A stretch of DNA of 64,000 nt from the IMG/VR virus record IMGVR_UViG_3300002462_000001; one strand, given 5' to 3'. This document shows positions 1-62,809 of this stretch, in pieces. The notes below the pieces were generated by a model. It did no database searches and had not been told where the DNA came from. It saw only the letters and a program-made list of their open reading frames with translations. Each line of letters starts with the position of its first letter. The stretch's first letter is position 1. Source of the stretch: a virus. The translations under genes were made by a program, and so were the position numbers.

Positions 1-2389
1 CATCGCCAGCTTCGACTGTATCGCCCACCTTTACCTTGAGACTATGACTGTGAGGTACAATGTGCTCCTGACCATTAATAGTGACTATCTGATTCCCTAA
101 TTCGTCTGACTTGATCGACGTAACCTTACCGTCATCCTGAGCATGCTCGGCACCCTCCCAATGCTTCGGCGATTGAAGCATGTTGTTGATCGCTTTAAAA
201 CCTAATACGCCTTTTGACGTACCCCCATAAACACCGCCACTGTTATGCGTAATCAAACCGTTAGCCAATACGTAGCAATGTGTGTGATTATCAATTTCGA
301 TATCATACACGCGTAATGCACCCACTGGCTTTGATTCTACAAGCCTATAAATACGCTTATTGCTAGACATTTTAACCGACGCATCCGAAATAAACGTCTT
401 CAACTTTTCACGCTTCACACCATATAAAGGTATCTCATTGTAAAACACTGCAATGTCTTTCTGTTTACGAATATAAATAGAATAAAACGTGCGTTTTCCA
501 CCTGAATTAGTCTCGTAAACTTTACTGCTATGAATACCAAAACGCAACTCTAGCAACTTACGCACCTGTCGGACCATCTGCTCAGATGTCGAACCAAAAG
601 ATAACTCTAAATTCTTTGACTTAGTAACACAGACACAACCATCAGTTACCCACAAACCGCCTATAAGAGCAGCTATGGATCTTTTGTCCCACTCACTAAC
701 ACACTCTGGTATAAATTTTTCATATGACTTCGCACCATATAACCGCAACTCCTTTAACCATGCTCTTATCGGGTTACGCTCGGATGACACAACTTGACCA
801 GTTTGTGGGCACCGATCCGTAATACTGTTAAATAAACGTGAAATGCGATAATACCCGTAATGATCAGTTAGCTCCGTGATTTTCATGCCCAGCGTATACA
901 TATAAGCTTGTAACTGAGGAACCAAAGTATCATCATGGCACGAAAAATATACGCCGTTAACACTTCGAACAAAGCAACCGTCACCCAGCAGTAAACCTAA
1001 CAATAACGCTCTTGGCTCATTAATTCCTACAAAATCCGATACGCCATCAACCGACAATACAGAGTATTCATCGCAAGGCAGGCCGATACACAAAGACTTA
1101 TTACGAACGTAATCTTTATTGGATTTTTTCGAATAACGTGCAATACGGGCATAAAAACGGTGCTGATCTGTACAGACAGCTCTGACAGTTTGCTGCGTCT
1201 TATCTACCTGAAAAATATACTCATTACAATCTTGAACACCGTTATCAAAAACACTCTTTACTAATGCAGGTTTTGCAATACGGTACTGTGTAATACCTAA
1301 AACATAATCACCTGGCTTAATTTGCTCTATAGGTTTTTCAGAGAAATCTGCCATTCTAACTAAAGTACCTTCAGCTAGGCAGTGCTTGGACGAAAGTAAA
1401 GACTGACTAATAGGCTCTGATAACGCCTGTGCTGCTGTCATAGATGGGTTCTCCCCTGACACATACAGCCTACCGCGCTCTCCCATACCTACGTCTTTTG
1501 CATACAGCGAACCATCTCCAGGTCCACCTACCATAGGCGACCGAACAAGAATATCTTTGACTTTCTTTCGCTGTAAATCCTTCAGTACAGAATCCGTTAT
1601 AAGAGTATTCCTCTTATAGCCGCCAACATCATGTGCAAGATAACGACCTATGTTATCGTTGTCGTCTGTTTCAGACGGCAATCCTAAATTAGCCTTTAAT
1701 TTATAGTCGGCAGGATAATCATCACCGGAAATAACACCTCGGTGTGCAACTTGAGCCAGCTGCTTACTCATGAAGCCGCCATCACTTACAGCGAGTTTGA
1801 CATCCACTACACCACGACGCGCACCAAACGAACCAGCCCAATACTCAAATGGATTAAGACCCTCAGAGTAGTTATGTAATACAGGAAACGGTATAGGTCT
1901 ATCATTACCGCCCTCATACAAACCATCAAAACCCACACCCGCTGACAATGCAATAGGATTTCCTTTTGCACCTGACCTAATCATTAACGCAGCCGGATGC
2001 TCATCGTCAGTTAATTTTTCATATAACTCCTCACGCATCTTCTCAGTCGCAGACATCGTAACATCCATCACCATGTCATCCTTCTGCTGCGGAGTCAAAT
2101 CATCATTATCGTAGATCGACTTAAGTTTGGCCTGTAATTTTGCGCGGTGCTTCTTAGTTATTTCAGGTGTTGCCAGTAAATCACTAGCTAAACTATATCC
2201 GCCTGAACGCTGTGCAAACTGTGCGCCCATACGACCCAACTTACCAAGTATCTCCTGATACTTGTCAGGGTCATTGTTTGCAATGTCAGATAATAACTTC
2301 TTCAATCCTTTCTTATCAAGTACCCGGCTGGGGTCACGATAAGCCGGCGGAAGTTCACTGTTTATTAAGATAGATCCTACTGTTGCCAT
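1..2389 (-). CDS. rpoC: RNA polymerase beta' subunit, C-terminal half (RpoC2-like), intein-containing; runs off the window start
   Basis: Hand-translated (absent from ORF track): MATVGSILINSELPP...GLNPFEYWAGSFGARRGVVDVKLAVSDGGFMSKQLAQVAHRG (bridge helix) ...TAAQALSEPISQSLLSSKH|intein|SGGVYGG (trigger loop, cf. [21 protein letters not shown]). Confidence 0.93.
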   Translation of the reverse strand, partial: MATVGSILINSELPPAYRDPSRVLDKKGLKKLLSDIANNDPDKYQEILGKLGRMGAQFAQRSGGYSLASDLLATPEITKKHRAKLQAKLKSIYDNDDLTPQQKDDMVMDVTMSATEKMREELYEKLTDDEHPAALMIRSGAKGNPIALSAGVGFDGLYEGGNDRPIPFPVLHNYSEGLNPFEYWAGSFGARRGVVDVKLAVSDGGFMSKQLAQVAHRGVISGDDYPADYKLKANLGLPSETDDNDNIGRYLAHDVGGYKRNTLITDSVLKDLQRKKVKDILVRSPMVGGPGDGSLYAKDVGMGERGRLYVSGENPSMTAAQALSEPISQSLLSSKHCLAEGTLVRMADFSEKPIEQIKPGDYVLGITQYRIAKPALVKSVFDNGVQDCNEYIFQVDKTQQTVRAVCTDQHRFYARIARYSKKSNKDYVRNKSLCIGLPCDEYSVLSVDGVSDFVGINEPRALLLGLLLGDGCFVRSVNGVYFSCHDDTLVPQLQAYMYTLGMKITELTDHYGYYRISRLFNSITDRCPQTGQVVSSERNPIRAWLKELRLYGAKSYEKFIPECVSEWDKRSIAALIGGLWVTDGCVCVTKSKNLELSFGSTSEQMVRQVRKLLELRFGIHSSKVYETNSGGKRTFYSIYIRKQKDIAVFYNEIPLYGVKREKLKTFISDASVKMSSNKRIYRLVESKPVGALRVYDIEIDNHTHCYVLANGLITHNSGGVYGGTSKGVLGFKAINNMLQSPKHWEGAEHAQDDGKVTSIKSDELGNQIVTINGQEHIVPHSHSLKVKVGDTVEAGD
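242..1381 (-). mobile_element. LAGLIDADG-type intein (380 aa) in the beta' trigger loop
   Basis: Starts CLAEGTLVRMAD, ends CYVLANGLITHN followed by +1 Ser; blocks LLLGLLLGDGC and LIGGLWVTDGC; in frame with ATG 2389. Confidence 0.93.
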
Positions 2390-2396
2390 GAATTTT

Positions 2397-2433
2397 ATTA
2401 TAGCCAGAATCGGTCTGACCATTGTGCTATAAT
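2397..2433. promoter_or_regulatory. Back-to-back -10 promoter pair ATTATAGC-N21-GCTATAAT (copy 1)
   Basis: Each TATAAT lies 7 nt from an ATG (2389 minus, 2441 plus). Confidence 0.75.
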
Positions 2434-2474
2434 TGAGATTATGAATGCATAGCGTAGTTTAATTGAAATTAATC

Positions 2475-3545
2475 ATGAAATTGAGATTTGGAAAATTTGC
2501 CGCCGACAAAAAAGCAAACAGAATGGGCCAGATGTTCAAGGTTCTCTCAAACAGTGGACCAAAAGGCATCGAAAAAGCTCAGCGGATGTACAAACAGCTG
2601 TCAGGCGGTAGAAACGTTCCTGACGTGGACTTCCGCCCAAACCACTTCCGGGACGTTCTCATAAATCAAAACAAAGGGAACATTCCAGCTACCGGGAATG
2701 TGTCAGCGTGGCACTTCATGGATGCTCCGGCAAATCATGCCAGGCATTTAGCGTCCGGTAGAGGACTTCTTGGCGACATTCAATATAACCGCGTACACTC
2801 ACCCGAAGTGCAGAAAGCCTACCAATACGCCAAAAGCAACCCAGAAATCTCTCGATTTATTCCACTACCCAAAAACAAACCAATTACACTAGAAACCGGC
2901 AGTCCACGCAGAGGATTCCCGGAAACGGAAACAACTGTTCAACGAGGTATTTTTCGTAGAACTGACGGCGCAGAACATAATGTTCCCGCGCCCGGCGAAA
3001 TGAGAACAATGCTTGTCGCTAAAAATCAACCCACGCAACAAACGCTACCGCTAATACCGCATGAACTGCCACACACCGGTACAAGAGTTAGAGCACGATT
3101 AGCGAGCGTTGAAGAACCTGATATCGGCACTCACTTACTAGGCCTGAACAAATCAGTTAAAGTCACACATCATCAAGATGACTTACCGCTATTTAACCGA
3201 CTCCAAAATAGAGCAGCAGAGTTAGATGCTAACGCCAAAGCTTACAAATATGCCCCAGAGTGGGGTAAAGCCAAAATACCGGGCATTACACGCAAATCTG
3301 TACAAGATGCGGCGGCTAAATCTATGCTTGACAAAGATACAGGATACTTTGGCGCTGAACAATTAAACATACTATCAGCACAAATTCAACGCGATAGAAT
3401 ATCAAAAGTCGAAGCAAATCAACTGACTAAAATATTCACTGATTTACTGCAGCAATACCCGCACTTGCCAATACAAGATCGAATAGCGGTAAATAAACTG
3501 CTTAAAATGATTGAACAAGCTAAAAAAAGGACTATGTTTACATAG
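2475..3545 (+). CDS. Hypothetical ~355 aa cassette cargo protein A (MKLRFGKFAAD leader; weak HELPH motif)
   Basis: Long ORF against the prevailing strand; ATG 2475 preferred over TTG 2463. Confidence 0.75.
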   Translation: MKLRFGKFAADKKANRMGQMFKVLSNSGPKGIEKAQRMYKQLSGGRNVPDVDFRPNHFRDVLINQNKGNIPATGNVSAWHFMDAPANHARHLASGRGLLGDIQYNRVHSPEVQKAYQYAKSNPEISRFIPLPKNKPITLETGSPRRGFPETETTVQRGIFRRTDGAEHNVPAPGEMRTMLVAKNQPTQQTLPLIPHELPHTGTRVRARLASVEEPDIGTHLLGLNKSVKVTHHQDDLPLFNRLQNRAAELDANAKAYKYAPEWGKAKIPGITRKSVQDAAAKSMLDKDTGYFGAEQLNILSAQIQRDRISKVEANQLTKIFTDLLQQYPHLPIQDRIAVNKLLKMIEQAKKRTMFT

Positions 3546-3580
3546 CCCCATACGTCGTATTAATCGACAAGGCTTAAAGA

Positions 3581-13197: not shown

Positions 13198-14265
13198 ATG
13201 AGTTACAAATGTGGTGGTTTTGATCTAGAGTTTCTGTCAAAATGTGTTTTGAAAAATCCAAAGTACCCACCTGGATACGTGCCTGGTGCGGGTATTGCTA
13301 AACTAGCCGGTGGTGTAATTATTCCAGGTATTGGATTTGTGCGATTGAACCCTGATTGCAACGAACGTCTTAAGAAAGCGGGCTATGTTCCTGGTGCGGG
13401 TATTGCTAAATTGGTGGCTGATTCACGTAACAAACAGTTGGAAAAGCTCGGTTTTATGCCGCTTGCTTTACGCGCTGGCGCTAGTCTTAAGACGTTATTG
13501 CCAACTATAAAAAAGAAACTTTTCACCTATAGAGGTCCTCAATTTGTAAAATCTCCGTTGGGACAGGCTGCCTTAGCTGGCGGTCTTGGAGCTGGAACTT
13601 TGGGCGGTAGCCTTTTAGGTGTTGATTATTTAAATCATGGGCCGCCACTTAGAGATTTAGCTGGCAGGCGTGCGGCTAACCCAGATGAAAACAATGCACA
13701 CTGGAGAAATGGAAAACCAATGAATATTAGTGGTTTAACGCCGCAACAGCGTGAAGATGCATATACATTGTTTGACGCGATGCATAACAACAAAAGAACA
13801 CAGCATCTGAGTTACCCGTCTATCCGCGTTAACCCAAAGCTACAGAATCCGCAATATAGCCCGTTATGGAACACAATACAGTTGCCCACAAAATCAAGTC
13901 TAAATGAGATGTTTCACGAAGGGGCGCACCGTACTACATACGGTACTACTTTTTGGAATCCGGTGAATAATATTCGGTTTCGTGGGCCAGGACTAAGGTT
14001 TTCGCAAAACTACCTACAGAATGAGTCTCGCACAGCAAGAGACCATTTCGAACTAAATCAACACGCACCAAAAAATCGCCAACTTACAGAAAAAGAGATT
14101 GCTGATTTTTGGAGAAATAATCTTACAGGGCATGCCAGTAACTACAAAGACTACAATCAGGTATGGAAAAAGTTCATGCGTAATCATAAACCATTCACGC
14201 AGTCAGATATGAATTCGAGCTTATGGTCACTACCGCAAACACTACCTGAGGGCTTTAATAATTAA
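13198..14265 (+). CDS. Cassette cargo protein B, putative zincin metallopeptidase domain
   Basis: Leader LKNPKYPPGYVPGAGIAKLA (partly duplicated), Gly-rich hydrophobic segment, NEMFHEGAH (HExxH) with downstream Glu (NESRT). Confidence 0.7.
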   Translation: MSYKCGGFDLEFLSKCVLKNPKYPPGYVPGAGIAKLAGGVIIPGIGFVRLNPDCNERLKKAGYVPGAGIAKLVADSRNKQLEKLGFMPLALRAGASLKTLLPTIKKKLFTYRGPQFVKSPLGQAALAGGLGAGTLGGSLLGVDYLNHGPPLRDLAGRRAANPDENNAHWRNGKPMNISGLTPQQREDAYTLFDAMHNNKRTQHLSYPSIRVNPKLQNPQYSPLWNTIQLPTKSSLNEMFHEGAHRTTYGTTFWNPVNNIRFRGPGLRFSQNYLQNESRTARDHFELNQHAPKNRQLTEKEIADFWRNNLTGHASNYKDYNQVWKKFMRNHKPFTQSDMNSSLWSLPQTLPEGFNN

Positions 14266-19240: not shown

Positions 19241-20317
19241 ATGACAATGAAAATTGAATACAGCGGTTTTGGTACAATACCTCTGACAAGCTGGATTTTG
19301 AAAAATCCAAAGTACCCACCGGGATATGTGCCTGGCGCCGGACTTGCAAAGATGGCAGCTGACGCTAAATTAGCGCAGTTTAAGCGTGACTATCCTGGTC
19401 TGGCAGCAATGTTCGACGACAGTGAAAAAATGTACGATAGTGAACCAAAACTCTTTAAATCCGCAGCGTACAAACGTCACGCGCACAGATGTAAAACCGG
19501 TCTACGGTTCAAGTCAGCGTCAGGAGACAGCGCGGATCTTGCTTACGCTGCGACACCCGGCGGCGCAGGAGCAAACGCTGCAACACTAATAGATGCAACG
19601 AGTAAAATTGTTCCACCGTTACCTGACCCGAGTACGACCCATCCTGACACATCTATTGCAAAGGCGACAGCACTTAACACACTAGCAACCGGTAAGCAAC
19701 TGCCCGCGAACACACCACATAACATACGCCAAGATATCGAAAATGCAAAAGATACGCTCACAGTCAACCAATTCAATAATGATTTTCTTGGACCAGCGGC
19801 GCACGTTAAAAACACTGATATCCATAGAAACACACAAATGGCAGCATTTACAGCCGCAACAGTTCCGTCTGCTGCAAGCGGGCTAGCTAAACATCCGATG
19901 ATTGCCCCTGTATTTAAGCCGTTTCAAAATCGGATACCGTCAACACTGTTAAATGCGGGAAAATCCGTTGGACTACGATTTATTCCGGGCGTAGGCTGGG
20001 TAACACTTGGAGCAGAAGCAGGAAGTTACATGTTAGATCGAGCAGATAACCATCGATTTAACCAAAACCCAGGACTCTACACCTGGCACAACTACTCTCC
20101 AGAGCGAACATGGTACCAATACTTTACTGCGTCTACAACATCAGATAAGATGCGCACCTGGGTCAACCTGCAACCGGAAGAAACTAAACAACGGATACTA
20201 AATGACCAGCAAAAAAAGCTCGAACAACAGGAGCAACGTAAAAACCGCTCATGGGGACAGACACTTAATGATTCTATGGAAGCATACGGTAACAGTCTCA
20301 GATATCAAAGCCGATAA
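19241..20317 (+). CDS. Cassette cargo protein C
   Basis: Leader LKNPKYPPGYVPGAGLAKMAAD; Ala/Gly-rich, FIPGVGWVTLGA hydrophobic hairpin. Confidence 0.75.
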   Translation: MTMKIEYSGFGTIPLTSWILKNPKYPPGYVPGAGLAKMAADAKLAQFKRDYPGLAAMFDDSEKMYDSEPKLFKSAAYKRHAHRCKTGLRFKSASGDSADLAYAATPGGAGANAATLIDATSKIVPPLPDPSTTHPDTSIAKATALNTLATGKQLPANTPHNIRQDIENAKDTLTVNQFNNDFLGPAAHVKNTDIHRNTQMAAFTAATVPSAASGLAKHPMIAPVFKPFQNRIPSTLLNAGKSVGLRFIPGVGWVTLGAEAGSYMLDRADNHRFNQNPGLYTWHNYSPERTWYQYFTASTTSDKMRTWVNLQPEETKQRILNDQQKKLEQQEQRKNRSWGQTLNDSMEAYGNSLRYQSR

Positions 20318-29026: not shown

Positions 29027-30276
29027 TTGACATACTCCACACCCTAAATGGCGGGGATTCCTTGTGCTTCCACAGACCGCCTTGCTTTACGCAAGGTCTT
29101 ACGTTGTGTATGTTTTACATCGCACAGAGAGGCAATGCCCTGCCTCTTTATGTTGATTGCGGCATTTACATCACGGTCATGGTTGACTCCGCAACACGGA
29201 CAAGTCCATGACCTTTCACTTTTGAGTAGTTTTCTGTCCAACTTCTTCTCGCATGCAGAGCAAATATGACTAGACGCATAAAATCTAACTACTTTGACAA
29301 CTCTAGTATCGTACTTCGTTGCGATATACTGCAACTTCTGGATGAATGAACCAAGTGCCAAATCAGAGACCTTACGACCCCAAAGTCTTATCCATCCTTT
29401 CAAACACAAATCTTCAATACAGATGACATCGTAGGATTTGCACAACTCGTGGGCTAACTTCCACTGCCAATCCTCTCTCTGGCAAGAGATATGATAATGA
29501 AAATTATTGAGGTGTTTCCTCGCTCTGCGCCTATTATTACTACCTTTCTGCTTTTTGGAAAGTCTCTTCGATAAACTTCTATATTTATCGACCTGTTGGA
29601 ATAAAAATCGTGGTGATGCGATAGTCTCACCTGTATCTTTCGTTGCAAAGGTTATCAATCCAAAGTCTAAACCAACCGTCCCATTACAGGCTCGTGAAAG
29701 TTTCTTTGGCTGAATATCGCAACTCATACAGATGAAGTATCTATCACCACTTTTCTTAACTACTATTTGTTTGACATTATAATATTCACAGGATTTGTGA
29801 AACCTGAATGTACCCACTTTGTTTATCTGGAATTTATTATCTTCCAGTTTGAAACCTGATTGGGTAAACCGGATTGAACCACCTTGTCTAATCTTCTTGA
29901 ACTTTGGGGGTGCTTTCTGTAACTTATTGAAGAATCTTTGGTAAGATTCGTCAAGTTTCTGTACTACACCTTGCACAGTTTGACTGTTGAGCTTCATCCA
30001 ATAAGAATTGCGTTTCCTTTTCTTAGCGATAAACTTCTGCAGCTGACTAACACTCAGATATTTACCGTAGATTCGATAGGATAGTTTCTGAATGGTCAAA
30101 GCATAATTCCAAATATAGTTAGACGTAACAATTAACTCACCGAGCCGGCTGTTACGCTTATTCTTATGATAGAGTTTATACTTGAAATTTTGCATACAAC
30201 GATTATACCTTAAATTGATTTCGGCAACGCACCTTATATCTAGTAGTCTAAAGTCTATAAATTTACGGTGCTTTTG
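29027..30276 (-). mobile_element. IS200/IS605-family (IS1341-like) tnpB-only element
   Basis: Left-end motif upstream of tnpB; right end GAATCCCCGCCATTTAGGGTGTGGAGTATGTCAA. Left boundary approximate. Confidence 0.85.
29044..30195 (-). CDS. tnpB: RNA-guided endonuclease TnpB
   Basis: HTH N-terminus, VGLDFG, ICIEDL, CSAC/CPCC Zn ribbon, HDRDVNAAINI: RuvC D-E-D intact. Confidence 0.95.
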   Translation of the reverse strand: MQNFKYKLYHKNKRNSRLGELIVTSNYIWNYALTIQKLSYRIYGKYLSVSQLQKFIAKKRKRNSYWMKLNSQTVQGVVQKLDESYQRFFNKLQKAPPKFKKIRQGGSIRFTQSGFKLEDNKFQINKVGTFRFHKSCEYYNVKQIVVKKSGDRYFICMSCDIQPKKLSRACNGTVGLDFGLITFATKDTGETIASPRFLFQQVDKYRSLSKRLSKKQKGSNNRRRARKHLNNFHYHISCQREDWQWKLAHELCKSYDVICIEDLCLKGWIRLWGRKVSDLALGSFIQKLQYIATKYDTRVVKVVRFYASSHICSACEKKLDRKLLKSERSWTCPCCGVNHDRDVNAAINIKRQGIASLCDVKHTQRKTLRKARRSVEAQGIPAI

Positions 30277-33790: not shown

Positions 33791-34951
33791 CTATTCAAAA
33801 CCAAAAAATCTAGCCAAGGAACTCTTAATCGTCGGCTCCTCTACCTTCATATCAACATTACCGACTCTGGACAACTTGTCAAACACCGCTTTATTGGGCT
33901 TCAACCCACCAAGAGCAACATACACACGCATCGAATCAGGCTTTGCCTCGTTCACATACACAGCAGGATGCAAAAGCATGTCCTTCTGTTTGCTGCTGTT
34001 ACGCAACAAATCCAACCCGCCCATCAACTCCTCAGTACTAAATGTGTTGAGCACGTTCTCACCAGCAACCACAATACATACTCCCTGCGTTGCCTTGCTA
34101 ATGTCTACGTCCGCCAAAGTTGCCGATTGGAAGGTGTCCATAATCGCCCTAGCAACTACATCACTTCCTTCTTCCCAGTTAGAAACGCCGGAAACACCGA
34201 AAGTAATCATGCCGCTATCCAACAACTGACTCAAATCAGAACTGTCGAATGTCTGCTCAGACGGCATTGCAGCCATCGTATTAAACGCATGAAGCAGATT
34301 AGCCACACCTTTATTAGCATCAGAATTACGCTTTGCGTAACTGGAGTTATGAATCTTGGCGACACGGGCGTTATCGATAATAACCATCGGAGTAGGATTA
34401 AGCACCAAAAACTCAGCATACGCATAAATAGCATTTTTCGCTACACGGCTCCCTTCTTGCTCCATCGGCAAGGATAGAATACATCCTATCTTGGCGTTCA
34501 TGCCCTTAGACTCGATGTACTCCTGCAAATACTTGAAAATAACCGGACCCATTCCAGAACCAGTACCGCCTCCAAGACCAGCACAGATGAATACATACTC
34601 AAAGTCAGTACCCAAAATCTCCTCAATATATCTGAGCAGCTGTACCCTAGTTGAGGGCTTCAAAACACATTCTCGTGCCTTGGACGGGTCTTTACCAGCT
34701 CCGCCAATACTAAGATCTACAAAATCAAGATCAGCAGAAAGACCTTTGCGATCCTGCTCGCAGGTGTTGGCCGCCATAGCTCGGCGGTAGCCCTTCTTGA
34801 AGAACTCATCGACTATCCTGCCGCCGGCAGCCCCACACCCTATAAACGCAAACTTCTTCGCAACAGGCTCCGAAAACTCGTCTGCCAGATTTAGCTCCTT
34901 TGAATCCTCTACCGGATGTACCTCTAAAACTTCTTCGTCAAAAATGGACAT
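33791..34951 (-). CDS. Tubulin/FtsZ-family GTPase (PhuZ/TubZ/CetZ-like)
   Basis: FIGCGAAGGRI, AGLGGGTGSG signature, T7-like FDSSDL. Confidence 0.92.
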   Translation of the reverse strand: MSIFDEEVLEVHPVEDSKELNLADEFSEPVAKKFAFIGCGAAGGRIVDEFFKKGYRRAMAANTCEQDRKGLSADLDFVDLSIGGAGKDPSKARECVLKPSTRVQLLRYIEEILGTDFEYVFICAGLGGGTGSGMGPVIFKYLQEYIESKGMNAKIGCILSLPMEQEGSRVAKNAIYAYAEFLVLNPTPMVIIDNARVAKIHNSSYAKRNSDANKGVANLLHAFNTMAAMPSEQTFDSSDLSQLLDSGMITFGVSGVSNWEEGSDVVARAIMDTFQSATLADVDISKATQGVCIVVAGENVLNTFSTEELMGGLDLLRNSSKQKDMLLHPAVYVNEAKPDSMRVYVALGGLKPNKAVFDKLSRVGNVDMKVEEPTIKSSLARFFGFE

Positions 34952-48526: not shown

Positions 48527-48678
48527 AGTTTATTAAGGTTTGTTAGTGGTTACTGGTTCTTCTATCAAAATTTCTTGCGGTATAACTCTACCAATTTTCA
48601 GAGGTATTGCTGCCGAGTCAATATAGCCTTCTACAAGCTGACCTATTTTATCAGGATATGCCAGCGACATGAAATCAT

Positions 48679-50184
48679 CAGAAATAGTAGCTGCGGAAAC
48701 CTGTATCTTTAGATTCAGGAGGAGCAGCGTTCTGTTAAAATTGTTGTACTTTTCTTAATCAGTTTTAGTTTCTTATACGAAATGCCGGCACTAACTTTTG
48801 TCCCGTCTAATAATCGCACATCAAAACTACCGGAAGACCGTCTTCCGAATATAAAACATTCTTGTCCTTGATATTTAACCATATCAAACAACCGAAAACC
48901 AAAGACATATTTCTCCGCCTTGTTAGATTTTCTGTAACCGCCCTTGGCTATTGTACATTTGTGCAACTGTCTATTATTAGCCCTGACAAACTTAATCAGG
49001 TAAGGCTTTGTCAAAACAGTCGGCATATTACCTTCAATACACCGAGCATCATTGACATGAGATTTCTCTAAACCAGCCTGTTGCCTGTGAAATTTCGTAA
49101 TATACCCAAAGGTTTCTTGAGCATAAGGATATATTTCTTTCAATTCCCTCAACAGTGTGGGTCTCATCACGGTCATTTGTGTTGCATCACGGAACGATTG
49201 CCCTCTTTTCTTTTTGAGTTGTTTCGTTCCATTATGAACACCATCATGACATTCCAAGCATAGAGTAACAAGGTTGTTCGGTGCATTTCCGCCTGTCTTA
49301 CGACTTTCGATATGATGTACATGAAGTTTTATCTTGCCCTTGCCGCACACCTGACACTTGTGCCCGTCTCTCACTAAAACATACTCCTTGACGTTTTGAT
49401 AGCCTAACTGGTCTCCCATCTGATAGTCAATGCCGGATATTTCAGGATTGTTAATTTTCTGGCTGTCAAACTGTGCTGTTTCAACGATGATTTTACTAAT
49501 GGGTAAAATCTTATGTAACTTTGCAATTACCCTCTTATGGGCTTCGACCTTCCATCTAACAGACGGAGGAAGCCAACCTTCTGGTTTTTTACGGTTTTGC
49601 CACCGTGCCTTCCGGTAACGAGTTTTTCTGTTCCTGCGTGAACGACGAAGTTCCCGCCTTGTTGACAACAAATCTACAATATCCGCCCTCAACTGAACTG
49701 TAGCTGCATAAACTTCTTTCTCTCCTGTGGTTACCGATAATCCAACAAACTTACTCCCTGCATCTACCGAGCAGGTACATTCCTGTACATACTCGGTAGA
49801 ATCGTAACATAACCGGATTGTGAACGGTGAGCGGGAAATAACTTTCGCCCTGCCGTCTCGTAACGCCCTTCGCACCCAACCATTTCTAGCGGTGGGCATC
49901 AAAGATGTTCCAGATTTGCTCAAAACATAAACTAACATAATTGTAAATCTCCTTACGGAGTTAGGTGTTCTTCGATAATGTTGAAAAGGGTTTAATGTTT
50001 ATGGCACCGTTCTTACCCATTGGAACTTTTAACCGTAAACCGTAGTGTTCAGGACTAGAACAAGCATCCTGAAGTACCTATTTATTCCTAATCAACGTAG
50101 TTGTCTCCCGGACAAACCGGGCGTTAAACTTAATCTAGTAAACAAGGGCTAAAAGCCCCACGCTTTAGCGTGTGGGTTGTTTAC
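48679..50184 (-). mobile_element. IS200/IS605-superfamily IscB element (1506 bp)
   Basis: 5' end GTAAACAACCCACACGCTAAAGCGTGGGGC; 3' hairpin CCTGAATC-TAAA-GATACAGG-TTTCCGCAGC; flanked by ATGA. Confidence 0.9.
48715..49938 (-). CDS. iscB: RNA-guided endonuclease IscB
   Basis: PLMP-like LMPT, VDAG, Arg-rich bridge helix, ETAQFD, HNH (HVHHI..NLVTLC..CH), SHVNDA. Confidence 0.96.
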   Translation of the reverse strand: MLVYVLSKSGTSLMPTARNGWVRRALRDGRAKVISRSPFTIRLCYDSTEYVQECTCSVDAGSKFVGLSVTTGEKEVYAATVQLRADIVDLLSTRRELRRSRRNRKTRYRKARWQNRKKPEGWLPPSVRWKVEAHKRVIAKLHKILPISKIIVETAQFDSQKINNPEISGIDYQMGDQLGYQNVKEYVLVRDGHKCQVCGKGKIKLHVHHIESRKTGGNAPNNLVTLCLECHDGVHNGTKQLKKKRGQSFRDATQMTVMRPTLLRELKEIYPYAQETFGYITKFHRQQAGLEKSHVNDARCIEGNMPTVLTKPYLIKFVRANNRQLHKCTIAKGGYRKSNKAEKYVFGFRLFDMVKYQGQECFIFGRRSSGSFDVRLLDGTKVSAGISYKKLKLIKKSTTILTERCSS

Positions 50185-50200
50185 TTTCTACTGTGTAGTT
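49939..50200 (-). ncRNA. omegaRNA (scaffold 50184-49939 plus ~16 nt 5' guide from the flank)
   Basis: Typical motifs ACTACGTT, ATAGGTAC..GGATGC..CTAGTCC, GGTTAAA, AAACC, AACATTATCGAAG. Confidence 0.85.
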
Positions 50201-53200
50201 GAAGTGCATAGTTCTCGCCAATTTTTCAATCCTTCGCTGTATTTGAAACCTACCGATACATCGATACCCATAGAGTACGGGCCTCTGTTTGTAATAACGT
50301 TACCGCGCAGGTCACGGGCATACACCTGCGCCCCCTGTACCATACATGCCGGTAATACTGTATCTACAATATGCGGTACATGCTTGTACGGAGCGCACAA
50401 AAGCACTTCGTCATGCACTTGCAAGCAGAGTTCATATTCGTCTTCGTGTTCAAATCGCCACTTGTACAGGTTTGTAAGCGCCATACGCATGGCCTCGGCT
50501 ACAAAGTTCTGTTCTGGAAAATTCTTAAATATACGCTCAAGGTCAGCATATTTATCGTCAGGCATATGACCGCACCTGGGTATTCTCCTAGGCCTGCCGC
50601 ATACGCCGATAATGTATCCCGGATTTCTCACAGAAACTGCGGCCTCAGACAGAAACTTCATAGCCCTTGGGTAAGTTAAAGCAACCGATTCAATGATTTT
50701 CCTTGCCTCTTCAACCGAAATAAACACATGTTCTTCACGTACCGCTTCTGCAATTGCTGCAGCACCGCGGCCATACATCATGCCGAATATCACAGACTTG
50801 GCGACTATTCTAAGATGCTCCTTACCGATACTTTCAAGACCGGTTTTTGTAGGCTCGCAGTCCAATCTAAACGCAGAAACCGCTATCTGACTGTGAATGT
50901 CGTAGAAGTTCGGATCATCCTCCGGCAACTGATTACGCTGAACATGTTCAAGCATTTTCTCGTCACCGGATAGTACGGCACAGGCAAATAACTCAGCACC
51001 AAGGAAGTCAGCGGCAATTAGCATATGCCCTTCCGGTGCAGTAAGAATACTCCGCAGCGGAGCGATGTATTTATCGCCTACAATTTTTTTGTAATCTTTT
51101 TCACGCCGTTTACTGATGTTCTGCATAGCAGGACGGGCTGAAGCAGCCCGCCCAGTATCCAAAGTACAGTATAAGTGCGTTCTTAGTTTACCGTCGTCAC
51201 AAATATATGATGACAATCCTCGCTCTATTTCAGTACCATCGTCACTCGTGACACTGCCTTTAAGCACGTAACTCAAAGCCTTATTCAGGAGTTTGAGACT
51301 GCGAAGGTTGGTTAATATGTTAGCCCGAAATTTTGCAAGTTCATCACCTTTTTCTTCATATATCTGATTGTACTTGTATGCCAGCATTGACAGTGAACGT
51401 GACCCACACGAAGGAGTTGGCGTATTATTTGGGTCCGCTGTGGCTTTATCCCAAGGTTTATCGTCTGTTGTGTACAGCGGCGTAAGTTTAAGAGTAACGG
51501 CACCCTCAGGACGCAAACAATCACTTTTCTTGACTTTCTTGTTATCCGTCGTTTTAGGTACTGTCTTTTTGGCTCCGTTATACTTCTCTCCAAAAAGCAA
51601 TTCACGTAACTGATACGACGAGTTGACGTTCAGCCCTTTCCACAGCGTATCACGCTCCAACTGCCCATGTAAACGCTTAGCTTCTTTAGAGTATAAGTTC
51701 ATTAGGTCGTCTAAGCGTCCTCGGTCCACCAGTAATCCAGTACAGTTCATTTCCAGAAACGCAGGCCACTGCTGCATACTGTTGCTGAACGCTTCCCAGC
51801 AGTCTAGCCCGTACGGATCCTTGTACAAATGCTCCATATAGAATAGGGCTAGTCTGCGGGTCACGTCAGCGTCATAACAGCCGTAATAGATAATCGTTTC
51901 ATCAGGGCATGCTCCAAATCCGCTAAGTTCTTTCTCTTTTATCTTGTGTAACTTACAGTAGTCTTTCTTCCATTGCGTAATTACGCTGTCGTAACGCGGT
52001 ACACTGGGAAGTCTGAGCATATACTGCCCAGTTAAACTATGGTCATCCGTTTCACAGTATGCATGTGCTGCAATAGCCGTATCGAATAAACACGGCTGAC
52101 CTTCTTTGATATACTGTTTGTACTCGGCAGCACTTGTAGGAATATACGGAAGGTCGTGTATCTGCGGTATAAATCCTTCACCGACGAGTGCTTCCACGTC
52201 GGAGTCCAGATAGTGTCCGCAAATAGTGTGATTCATCCAAATGTCATAAAAGTCATACTTGATTTCCGCCAGTTCCTCTTCAGTGAATAGCGGCGTACCA
52301 AAAGCATTTCTGACAACTAGAGCTGCTGCTGTATTAGGTTTCCAACTGAACTGTATTGTTCGTATCCAGAAGTCCGCATTTTGAGGGTGCTGACCGCTCC
52401 ATTCAGCGTCTATTGCCAGAATACCGTCTACACACTCTTCCTTTAACGTTTCCTTAAACTGCCGCCACTCGTCAATTGTCCTAATTTCTAAATGATTATA
52501 AGTCTCTGTAAGAGTGATGTCATTTAGTAGATTTACGAACATTTGAAAGGCGGTTTTGTATCTCGCCATTTCAGAAGCGTCGGATGATCTTACCACTGCC
52601 TGCGGTGCTGTACACGCCACACATTTTGCAATGCGGTCATGTCCGTTAGCATCAACATAAGGATATTCTAATACAGTGCCGGTTAAATTAGTAATTTTGG
52701 CTTTATGCCCAAATAAGGATTTCACAGCCTCAGCACCAAAGACCAAAATATACGACGGACCGACTAAAGACACCTCGTGTTTCAGAAGTGGAAACGCCTC
52801 TGTAAGCCAAGTCGCCTTTAAGCGTGAACCTTTGGTCTCATCTTCCGGGTGTAACGTCTTGAATAAATACGTTACATACCAGGTAGCCGGATCTGCGCCC
52901 AACTCTATTGCTGTATCGTAGAAAAACCTACCAGCAGGGGTATCAGGACTGAAACACCGTGTTACAGAGTTTGGGCGGTCCTTCGTCTCATAGTCCCAGG
53001 GACGCGGTAGTTTACCTACTACCATCACAGGAGCCGGTGTCGGTCCTCTGAGTTGAGGCGCGGCATAGATATGCCCGGCGCAGATTGGCATGTCGATAAG
53101 ATCGTTCGGCTGAACGCCTATCTGCCAAGGAAGATATTCTACCGCACCAGTTAAGATTGCCTTGACACATTGCTGCTCGTCGGCATAGTTCGGAAGAACG

Positions 53201-53247
53201 TGTGTAGCAAATACTGGACCAAGAATATCGGTTTCATTTTTTATCAT
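50188..53247 (-). CDS. polA: Family A DNA polymerase with N-terminal uracil-DNA-glycosylase-like and 3'-5' exonuclease domains
   Basis: IDAE exonuclease, YDAD, ADFLGAE (motif A), RIVAKSVIFGMMYG (B), VHDE (C); UDG-like YVTYLFK..ILVFGAEAVK. Confidence 0.93.
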   Translation of the reverse strand: MIKNETDILGPVFATHVLPNYADEQQCVKAILTGAVEYLPWQIGVQPNDLIDMPICAGHIYAAPQLRGPTPAPVMVVGKLPRPWDYETKDRPNSVTRCFSPDTPAGRFFYDTAIELGADPATWYVTYLFKTLHPEDETKGSRLKATWLTEAFPLLKHEVSLVGPSYILVFGAEAVKSLFGHKAKITNLTGTVLEYPYVDANGHDRIAKCVACTAPQAVVRSSDASEMARYKTAFQMFVNLLNDITLTETYNHLEIRTIDEWRQFKETLKEECVDGILAIDAEWSGQHPQNADFWIRTIQFSWKPNTAAALVVRNAFGTPLFTEEELAEIKYDFYDIWMNHTICGHYLDSDVEALVGEGFIPQIHDLPYIPTSAAEYKQYIKEGQPCLFDTAIAAHAYCETDDHSLTGQYMLRLPSVPRYDSVITQWKKDYCKLHKIKEKELSGFGACPDETIIYYGCYDADVTRRLALFYMEHLYKDPYGLDCWEAFSNSMQQWPAFLEMNCTGLLVDRGRLDDLMNLYSKEAKRLHGQLERDTLWKGLNVNSSYQLRELLFGEKYNGAKKTVPKTTDNKKVKKSDCLRPEGAVTLKLTPLYTTDDKPWDKATADPNNTPTPSCGSRSLSMLAYKYNQIYEEKGDELAKFRANILTNLRSLKLLNKALSYVLKGSVTSDDGTEIERGLSSYICDDGKLRTHLYCTLDTGRAASARPAMQNISKRREKDYKKIVGDKYIAPLRSILTAPEGHMLIAADFLGAELFACAVLSGDEKMLEHVQRNQLPEDDPNFYDIHSQIAVSAFRLDCEPTKTGLESIGKEHLRIVAKSVIFGMMYGRGAAAIAEAVREEHVFISVEEARKIIESVALTYPRAMKFLSEAAVSVRNPGYIIGVCGRPRRIPRCGHMPDDKYADLERIFKNFPEQNFVAEAMRMALTNLYKWRFEHEDEYELCLQVHDEVLLCAPYKHVPHIVDTVLPACMVQGAQVYARDLRGNVITNRGPYSMGIDVSVGFKYSEGLKNWRELCTSTTQ

Positions 53248-61886: not shown

Positions 61887-62322
61887 CTATCCGCAATGAC
61901 CGCCACCGCCACCGCCTGTGTCTCCACAGTGTCCGCCATCCACTGATGACAGCTTGGACGCTCTATAAATCCGCAAACACATTGCCGTCCACCAATTCGA
62001 TATTCTTTTCATCAAAATATTAGCTGCGGAAACCGTACCTTTAGGTTCAGTGGGAGCAGCGTTAAAGGTTACAAAATACCCTACTACCGCATAAACGGTA
62101 GAGGGTGTAAAGCAGGATTACTCCTGTTAGGTGTTCTTCGATAATGTTATGGATAGGTTTTGTATATCAACCACACTGTTCGTTTCCAATCTGTTTTACC
62201 AGAATTAGCTGTGATTGAATTCCTATCTACACAATGAGCACATTTATTATCACAAAACTTTGTGAAGTGCACGTCATACGAACAATATATTCCGTCACAG
62301 CAGTTCTTTTTAAATATACTCA
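61887..62322 (-). pseudogene. Disrupted radical SAM gene remnant
   Basis: MSIFKKNCCDGIYCSYDVHFTKFCDNKCAHCVD (CxxxCxxC) runs into IS-derived sequence; downstream 41-codon piece ends GGHCGDTGGGGGGHCG*. Confidence 0.6.
62013..62215 (-). mobile_element. IscB-element remnant: 3' half of omegaRNA plus right end, no iscB
   Basis: AACATTATCGAAGAACACCTAAC identical to the omegaRNA at 49961-49983; right end AACGCTGCTCCCACTGAACCTAAAGGTACGGTTTCCGCAGCTA near-identical to the IscB element end; same ATGA flank. Upstream boundary approximate. Confidence 0.8.
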
Positions 62323-62809
62323 TTATTTTTAGCGGGATCAAAAAACTTAATCTCTCCTTCCTCCTCTGCAAAACCTTCTGAGCTGAGTATCTTCATGCTC
62401 ATCCCGTGCTTCAGATCAAATCCGACGTCCTCCCATACTAATTCAGGAACAACGTCTGAGTAGTCGTCCCACTCATCCTCATCAAATGTAAACTCTATTA
62501 TTAATTTTTTAGACATATCTCTCCTTCCTCCGGCGGCGCCGGGGCAATAAGCTTTTTCCAAAGCGGAGTGTGCTTGAAGTAATCTTTTGCTCAGTCATAA
62601 AGTCCTTAAAAACCTTCCCGTGGTTATTATACTCCTCATAAAAGAGAATTTCTCTCGTACGATCATCACGTCCTCTGATTCTCACTAACTTAAGTGTTAG
62701 TATAGGATATGCCGATACGCTTCCCTGACCTTCCATGAGCAGAAGCCAATACAATCCATTTTTTGGTGCTTCAGTAGTCCACTTTGTCTGATCTGCAATT
62801 TTCGTCATG

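Follow-up and report, generated by a model that had tools for sequence, protein, structure and literature searches.

Just downstream of the DNA polymerase gene polA, the viral contig IMGVR_UViG_3300002462_000001 (IMG/VR; 186,885 bp) carries an insertion that raises the question of what kind of element it is, where it starts and ends, and which DNA an RNA guide taken from its flank could address. We analysed a 64-kb window of this contig (64,000 nucleotides; window coordinates are used throughout), in which the insertion lies on the minus strand at positions 48679-50184. Judged from its sequence, it is very probably a complete, non-autonomous insertion sequence (IS) of the IS200/IS605 type with iscB and an omegaRNA gene, residing in a jumbo phage. 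An earlier sequence-only reading had named it an IscB/omegaRNA IS element with these same ends, a guide located 5' of the scaffold and a 3' target-adjacent motif (TAM) ATGA; all of this is borne out by the protein and RNA family matches and the relatives described below. Its further proposals, a split native gene and homing into natural empty alleles, fared differently.

The iscB open reading frame (ORF; 48715-49938, minus strand) is preceded by an AAGGAG Shine-Dalgarno sequence and encodes a protein of 407 aa with the Pfam domains RRXRR (residues 3-175, E 1.7e-62) and HNH (residues 195-236, E 4.7e-09); solved IscB structures match it with a best E of 6e-51. The N-terminus (...SLMPT) is of the PLMP type, and a bridge helix splits the RuvC domain, into which the HNH domain is inserted. 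In an alignment of this protein with eleven relatives (alignment A3; 61-75% identity), the RuvC residues D59, E153, H294 and D297, the HNH residues H208/H209, N222 and H231/H235, as well as two CxxC pairs (C195/C198 and C227/C230) are invariant, and all of them are present in the window protein. The iscB gene and the omegaRNA both look intact. Homologues are abundant (more than 8000 at E < 1e-20). The single protein used as a query found no match in the genome and viral contigs, whereas the alignment did, with 543 stretches in IMG/VR. PHROGs already contains such proteins (labelled 'HNH endonuclease'), and nothing specific was found in the literature on phage-borne IscB. The nearest relatives (70-77% identity) all stand in phage-like contexts, and the element is typical of a large IscB clade found in Bacillota and in the phages of these bacteria.

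The omegaRNA scaffold, formed from the right end (RE) of the transposon, runs from 50184 to 49960 on the minus strand and stops 21 nt ahead of the iscB ATG. It matches the full HEARO model (Rfam RF02033, model positions 1-211) with 125.1 bits (gathering threshold 83; E 1.9e-25). On the plus strand it finishes in TTTAC (50180-50184), a sequence resembling a transposon-encoded motif (TEM), and the DNA of the RE region folds with z = -3.3. The 16-nt guide segment AACTACACAGTAGAAA (50185-50200, minus strand) lies outside the transposon and directly adjoins HEARO position 1 on its 5' side; in relatives with several copies (Sporosarcina sp. FA9), the similarity between copies begins at the same scaffold position. 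The element stands 3 nt past the stop codon of the UDG-PolA fusion gene and is co-oriented with it. This stop (TAG, 50190-50188) falls inside the guide segment, and the scaffold's own stems are the sole terminator-like sites between the stop and the scaffold. Among GenBank phages only short HEARO-like matches were found, in Clostridium phage c-st and in pCD1602_4.

At the opposite, left end (LE; 48679-48728, minus strand), an 11-nt terminus is followed by a subterminal hairpin (48690-48728; DNA and RNA folds) which overlaps the iscB stop codon. This hairpin with its terminus of ~10 nt is common to more than 100 relatives, and according to the fold predictions both ends of the element have subterminal structure, i.e. 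the LE hairpin and the RE stems.

Both ends could be placed by means of an element-free relative, L008, a contig from a Joint Genome Institute (JGI) metagenome (5216 bp) that was found via the small ORF downstream of the element. It aligns with the window without gaps at 93% identity on both sides of the insertion, L008 1-3446 corresponding to 53630-50185 and L008 3546-5216 to 48679-47009, so that homology breaks exactly at 50184/50185 and 48678/48679. The first of these breaks is also where the HEARO match begins. The polA gene of the window (50188-53247, minus strand; Pfam DNA_pol_A and UDG; 1019 aa) is intact and equals that of L008 in length. The minus-strand junctions read ...AACTACACAGTAGAAA|GTAAAC... 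and ...TATTTCTG|ATGATTTCATG, without duplicated bases at either of them. Note that the G at 48679 is one ambiguous base of the boundary in this alignment: the element measures 1506 nt, or 1505 nt if this terminal G is assigned to the flank. In place of the element, L008 has 100 nt (3447-3546), its sequence being ...CAACTACGCAGTAGAAA|ATGCAAAAC...CTCCCAG|ATGATTTCATG. A clean insertion would leave an empty site equal to the joined flanks; the empty allele of L008 exceeds them by these 100 nt. The two contigs make a rare natural before/after pair for a phage IscB insertion (empty versus occupied allele, 93% identical), and the pair therefore fixes both transposon boundaries to the nucleotide.

The first bases of the regained L008 homology give the motif beyond the LE. 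This flank reads ATGAT from 48678 to 48674 on the minus strand, the IscB strand, i.e. ATCAT on the transposon top strand. A protein-less remnant of a related element, already noticed in the sequence-only reading, lies 12 kb away (62013-62148, minus strand) and is real: 62009-62063, which includes the LE hairpin terminus (62013-62063), matches 48675-48731 with 88% identity (blastn, over 57 nt), and its omegaRNA 3' end (62126-62148) is identical over 23 nt to 49960-49982. It is flanked by ATGAA (62012-62008) within unrelated surrounding sequence, and TCAT stands immediately 5' of the LE on the plus strand in the main copy and in the remnant alike. In 90 of 127 unique related loci, ATGA occurs 19-26 nt past the terminal hairpin (compared with ~20-35 loci for the best unrelated 4-mers), in a tally that used a heuristic hairpin anchor and was partly conditioned on ATG. 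Among flanks beginning with ATG the fourth base is A in 82, G in 10, T in 9 and C in none, and ATGAA is the dominant 5-mer. The nearest relative retrieved, L172 (77% identity), terminates with ...AACAGG|ATGATT, and the Sporosarcina copies part ways straight after ATGAA and straight before the scaffold. The TAM measured for GstIscB is TTCAT, which reads ATGAA on the opposite strand (Meers et al., bioRxiv 10.1101/2023.03.14.532601), in agreement with the ATGA proposed earlier. These flanks suggest, with independent support from the family, that ATGA(A) is the TAM of this IscB, and thereby lend such support for a clade of compact IscB proteins (407 aa) often met with in phage contigs.

Elements of the phage-borne clade (L009, L010, L011, L172, and the remnant with its flank at 62008-62012) repeatedly abut the start codon of the next gene, where the start codon and the next base, the first of codon 2, make up the TAM ATGA. 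In L009, AAGGAG is found within the last bases of the element, and such abutting elements may supply or displace translation signals. At the remnant, a weak HEARO match (18 bits) extends over 62126-62327, and the decayed scaffold may reach 62327. A Cys-rich ORF of 58-74 aa (62147-62371, minus strand) overlaps this decayed scaffold; the 74-aa ORF has no Pfam match, and it may be a genuine gene or just an open frame persisting in a decayed RNA gene.

What could such a guide address? In the donor-joint targeting model established for the family (Meers et al., bioRxiv 10.1101/2023.03.14.532601), the RNA-guided nuclease cuts the joint from which its element has been excised. By analogy with this family model, transcription reading through from polA would supply an omegaRNA that begins with 16 nt of flank sequence, AACTACACAGTAGAAA, and this RNA would direct IscB to cut DNA bearing AACTACACAGTAGAAA followed by ATGA. 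The cut target would be the joint left if TnpA (Y1), supplied in trans, excises the element, and recombination after cleavage would reinstate it. The guide followed by ATGA is the joint expected from excision of the present element, as the family model predicts. No other target for guide plus TAM was found in the window with up to 3 mismatches allowed, and none in the loci retrieved. The empty site of L008 (...GTAGAAA|ATGCAAAAC...) has one mismatch to the guide and ATGC after the protospacer, with a fourth base, C, never seen in 104 related flanks; because of the mismatch and this C, the L008 allele appears to be a doubtful target for this IscB and guide. As far as the compared sequences go, the guide fits only the element's own hypothetical excision joint among the alleles found. 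The sequence-only reading had regarded the element as homing into the empty allele at the polA 3' end and had itself listed an empty allele with another junction as contrary evidence; L008, the only empty allele found, has such a junction, and the homing claim against natural empty alleles stands unproven. When polA was used as a query, IMG/VR yielded only distant relatives (41-48% identity) without synteny, and the protein of 546 aa encoded downstream and the small-gene product P0002 matched nothing in that database.

The 100 nt of L008 open an ORF of 81 aa (P0002) that begins 3 nt past the polA stop. In the window only the 3' part of this small gene is left, as a residual 45-aa ORF (48533-48670, minus strand; 85% identity to P0002 residues 37-81), its initial 100 nt being absent. 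An exhaustive profile-free search revealed two distant homologues of P0002, P0131 (68 aa, 55% identity) and P0132 (57 aa, 48% identity), which align across its 36 N-terminal residues, i.e. across the part absent from the window. The gene for P0131 is located directly upstream of a homologue of the 546-aa gene and that for P0132 directly after polA; the site of the small gene, between polA and the 546-aa gene, is thus syntenic. Since the N-terminus is conserved in P0131 and P0132, the long (81-aa-type) form is, by this comparison, the ancestral one, and in the window its start codon and 33 codons are gone. The insertion accordingly goes together with the disappearance of the initial 100 nt of a conserved small gene. 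The polA-to-546-aa-gene interval is hypervariable in related phages (L005, L006, MKn9S3B1), with 0 to 9 small genes, and resembles a hotspot at which accessory genes and mobile elements accumulate.

How insertion and loss are related can be read in several ways. The sequence-only reading had taken the element to be inserted, free of loss, into a native 56-aa gene overlapping the polA stop, with an empty allele ...GTAGAAA|ATGATTTC..., and had used the rejoined gene to validate the ends. Deleting 48679-50184 (1506 nt) does yield, in frame, an ORF of 56 aa whose start lies at 50209 and which runs across the polA stop, and IS200/IS605 insertion neither duplicates nor removes target sequence, which counts for a loss-free event. 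Nevertheless, this history is highly improbable. The 93%-identical empty allele of L008 holds 100 extra nt and the 81-aa gene, whose N-terminus, conserved in distant homologues, is absent from the window; the N-terminus of the 56-aa ORF, MHFNYTVEN, is unlike those of P0002, P0131 and P0132, and its frame meets a stop after 12 codons in L008. Furthermore, an exact search of IMG/VR for the rejoined junction GTAGAAAATGATTTC gave 0 matches, and of 300 left breakpoints chosen arbitrarily within the 3' end of polA, 45% produce an ATG-initiated in-frame extension of 11 codons or longer (17% of shuffles), so that the 56-aa ORF is fortuitous and does not validate the ends. An in-frame ORF regained by deleting an insert is therefore weak evidence; the true target gene here has lost 100 nt. 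We favour instead, with modest confidence, a history in which the element landed just 5' of the start of the small gene and a later deletion removed the gene's 5' part. This deletion would have occurred between two direct repeats, G-ATG(A), located at the element end and 100 nt farther downstream; ATG follows both L008 breakpoints, and G-ATG microhomology is present at both deletion ends. The homologous start codon of L174 reads ATGAAAAAT (ATGAA, a canonical TAM) versus ATGCAAAAC (ATGCA) in L008, and insertion right before a start codon is also seen for the remnant and L172. A possible, though rather unlikely, alternative is insertion at the internal ATGAT of the 81-aa gene (L008 3547), followed by loss of the 100 nt on the guide side right up to the omegaRNA start, an event in which TnpA may have cut at the TAM-like GCAT; the present guide would then be secondary and not correspond to the original target. 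With ATGAT present in L008 at the internal site no change of TAM is needed, in contrast to ATGC at the start codon, and TnpA is able to use alternative boundary motifs. However, this alternative needs a deletion that ends exactly at both the RE boundary and the start codon, the required deletion ends have no microhomology, relatives do have ATGAA at the homologous start codon, and elements of the clade often abut start codons.

Several points weigh against our reading of the element as a complete IS that landed at the start codon. The order of insertion and deletion depends on one element-free relative, and at the proposed insertion site this relative has ATGC in place of ATGA; the TAM tally was anchored heuristically, as described above. 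Moreover, none of the 58 window ORFs of at least 120 aa (from 64 kb of a contig of 186,885 bp) matched a Y1 TnpA at E < 4e-5, and the present-day mobility of the element is unproven. One may thus ask whether it is no longer a transposon but was stranded without TnpA, its IscB either drifting or being kept by the phage against co-infecting relatives. Apart from the missing TnpA, the decayed protein-less copy 12 kb off, the phage-like contexts of the nearest IscB relatives and the many other selfish nucleases of this phage fit such a fate, which we nonetheless consider unlikely: the element has kept an intact ORF with its catalytic residues, an intact omegaRNA and both of its ends; IscB elements mostly have no TnpA in their vicinity yet are regarded as mobile (Meers et al., bioRxiv 10.1101/2023.03.14.532601); and the one natural empty allele, L008, offers a poor TAM. 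Less credence still is due to the idea that the element is an RNA-guided homing or marker-exclusion device acting between co-infecting jumbo phages. Its guide would be directed at the polA/small-gene junction of element-free relatives with an ATGAA start, which we rate as equally improbable; the same low probability applies to the corollary that the ATGC start context of the L008 lineage (K2Q) and its protospacer mismatch are escape changes, and that repair from the genome bearing the element would co-convert the 100-nt deletion.

Returning to the complete, non-autonomous IS, its closest counterpart among characterized systems is GstIscB/ISGst5 of Geobacillus stearothermophilus, in which the RE gives rise to the scaffold, the guide is situated beyond the element boundary and transcription must read through from an upstream gene in the same orientation (Meers et al., bioRxiv 10.1101/2023.03.14.532601). 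Both are non-autonomous IS200/IS605 elements with a scaffold and guide of this arrangement; in the window, the upstream gene providing read-through would be polA. The TAM of GstIscB (top strand TTCAT, IscB strand ATGAA) corresponds to the motif flanking the window element, both have protein-less derivatives similar to palindrome-associated transposable elements (PATE), and Geobacillus and Anoxybacillus homologues (~54-58% identity) show the same hairpin followed by ATGAA. However, GstIscB is located in a bacterial chromosome and the window element in a jumbo phage, where the main copy has T as the fifth TAM base, no TnpA was seen in the window, and a 100-nt target loss accompanies the insertion.

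OgeuIscB and the solved complexes (PDB 7XHT, 7UTN, 11HR) agree with the window protein in domain order and catalytic residues (E 6e-51 to 6e-49). With 407 aa compared with 495-496 aa in the solved IscB proteins, it is, however, ~90 residues shorter, and the similarity is confined to the core; the TAM reported for OgeuIscB is unlike that of the window element. Compared with HEARO RNA, the scaffold shows no notable difference; its full-length match lies just upstream of an HNH/RRXRR ORF. Like the homing endonuclease genes of T-even and jumbo phages, the element is a selfish nuclease placed between phage replication genes. In contrast to these, its specificity would reside in an RNA guide and a TAM rather than in the protein, it would move through Y1 transposition and cleavage of the donor joint, and the natural empty allele makes a doubtful target (ATGC). 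The current understanding of IscB biology is unchanged by this element.

The replicon that hosts the element is a jumbo phage, as seen from the gene content of the window, which besides polA comprises genes for tubulin, pieces of a multisubunit RNA polymerase, a DnaB-like helicase and a UvsX-like recombinase, as well as the selfish genes for LAGLIDADG and HNH homing endonucleases and a TnpB. Nearly all genes of the window are located on one strand. The plus strand is otherwise almost empty, with three ORFs of 355-360 aa (2463-3545, 13198-14265 and 19241-20317) that have neither a Pfam or PHROG family nor mutual similarity and may be spurious antisense frames or orphan genes. The TnpB gene (29044-30195, minus strand; Pfam OrfB_IS605 and Cas12f1-like TNB; phrog_506, E 3e-88) represents a second element of the OMEGA (obligate mobile element-guided activity) type in this phage. 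An ORF with an RNA-polymerase Rpb1 domain (2-2422, minus strand) holds LAGLIDADG_3 at residues 583-664, a domain that could mark an intein in this phage RNA polymerase subunit or the insertion of a homing endonuclease into it. Finally, a protein of the tubulin/FtsZ family (PhuZ-like; 33791-34951, minus strand) suggests a spindle- or nucleus-forming type of phage.

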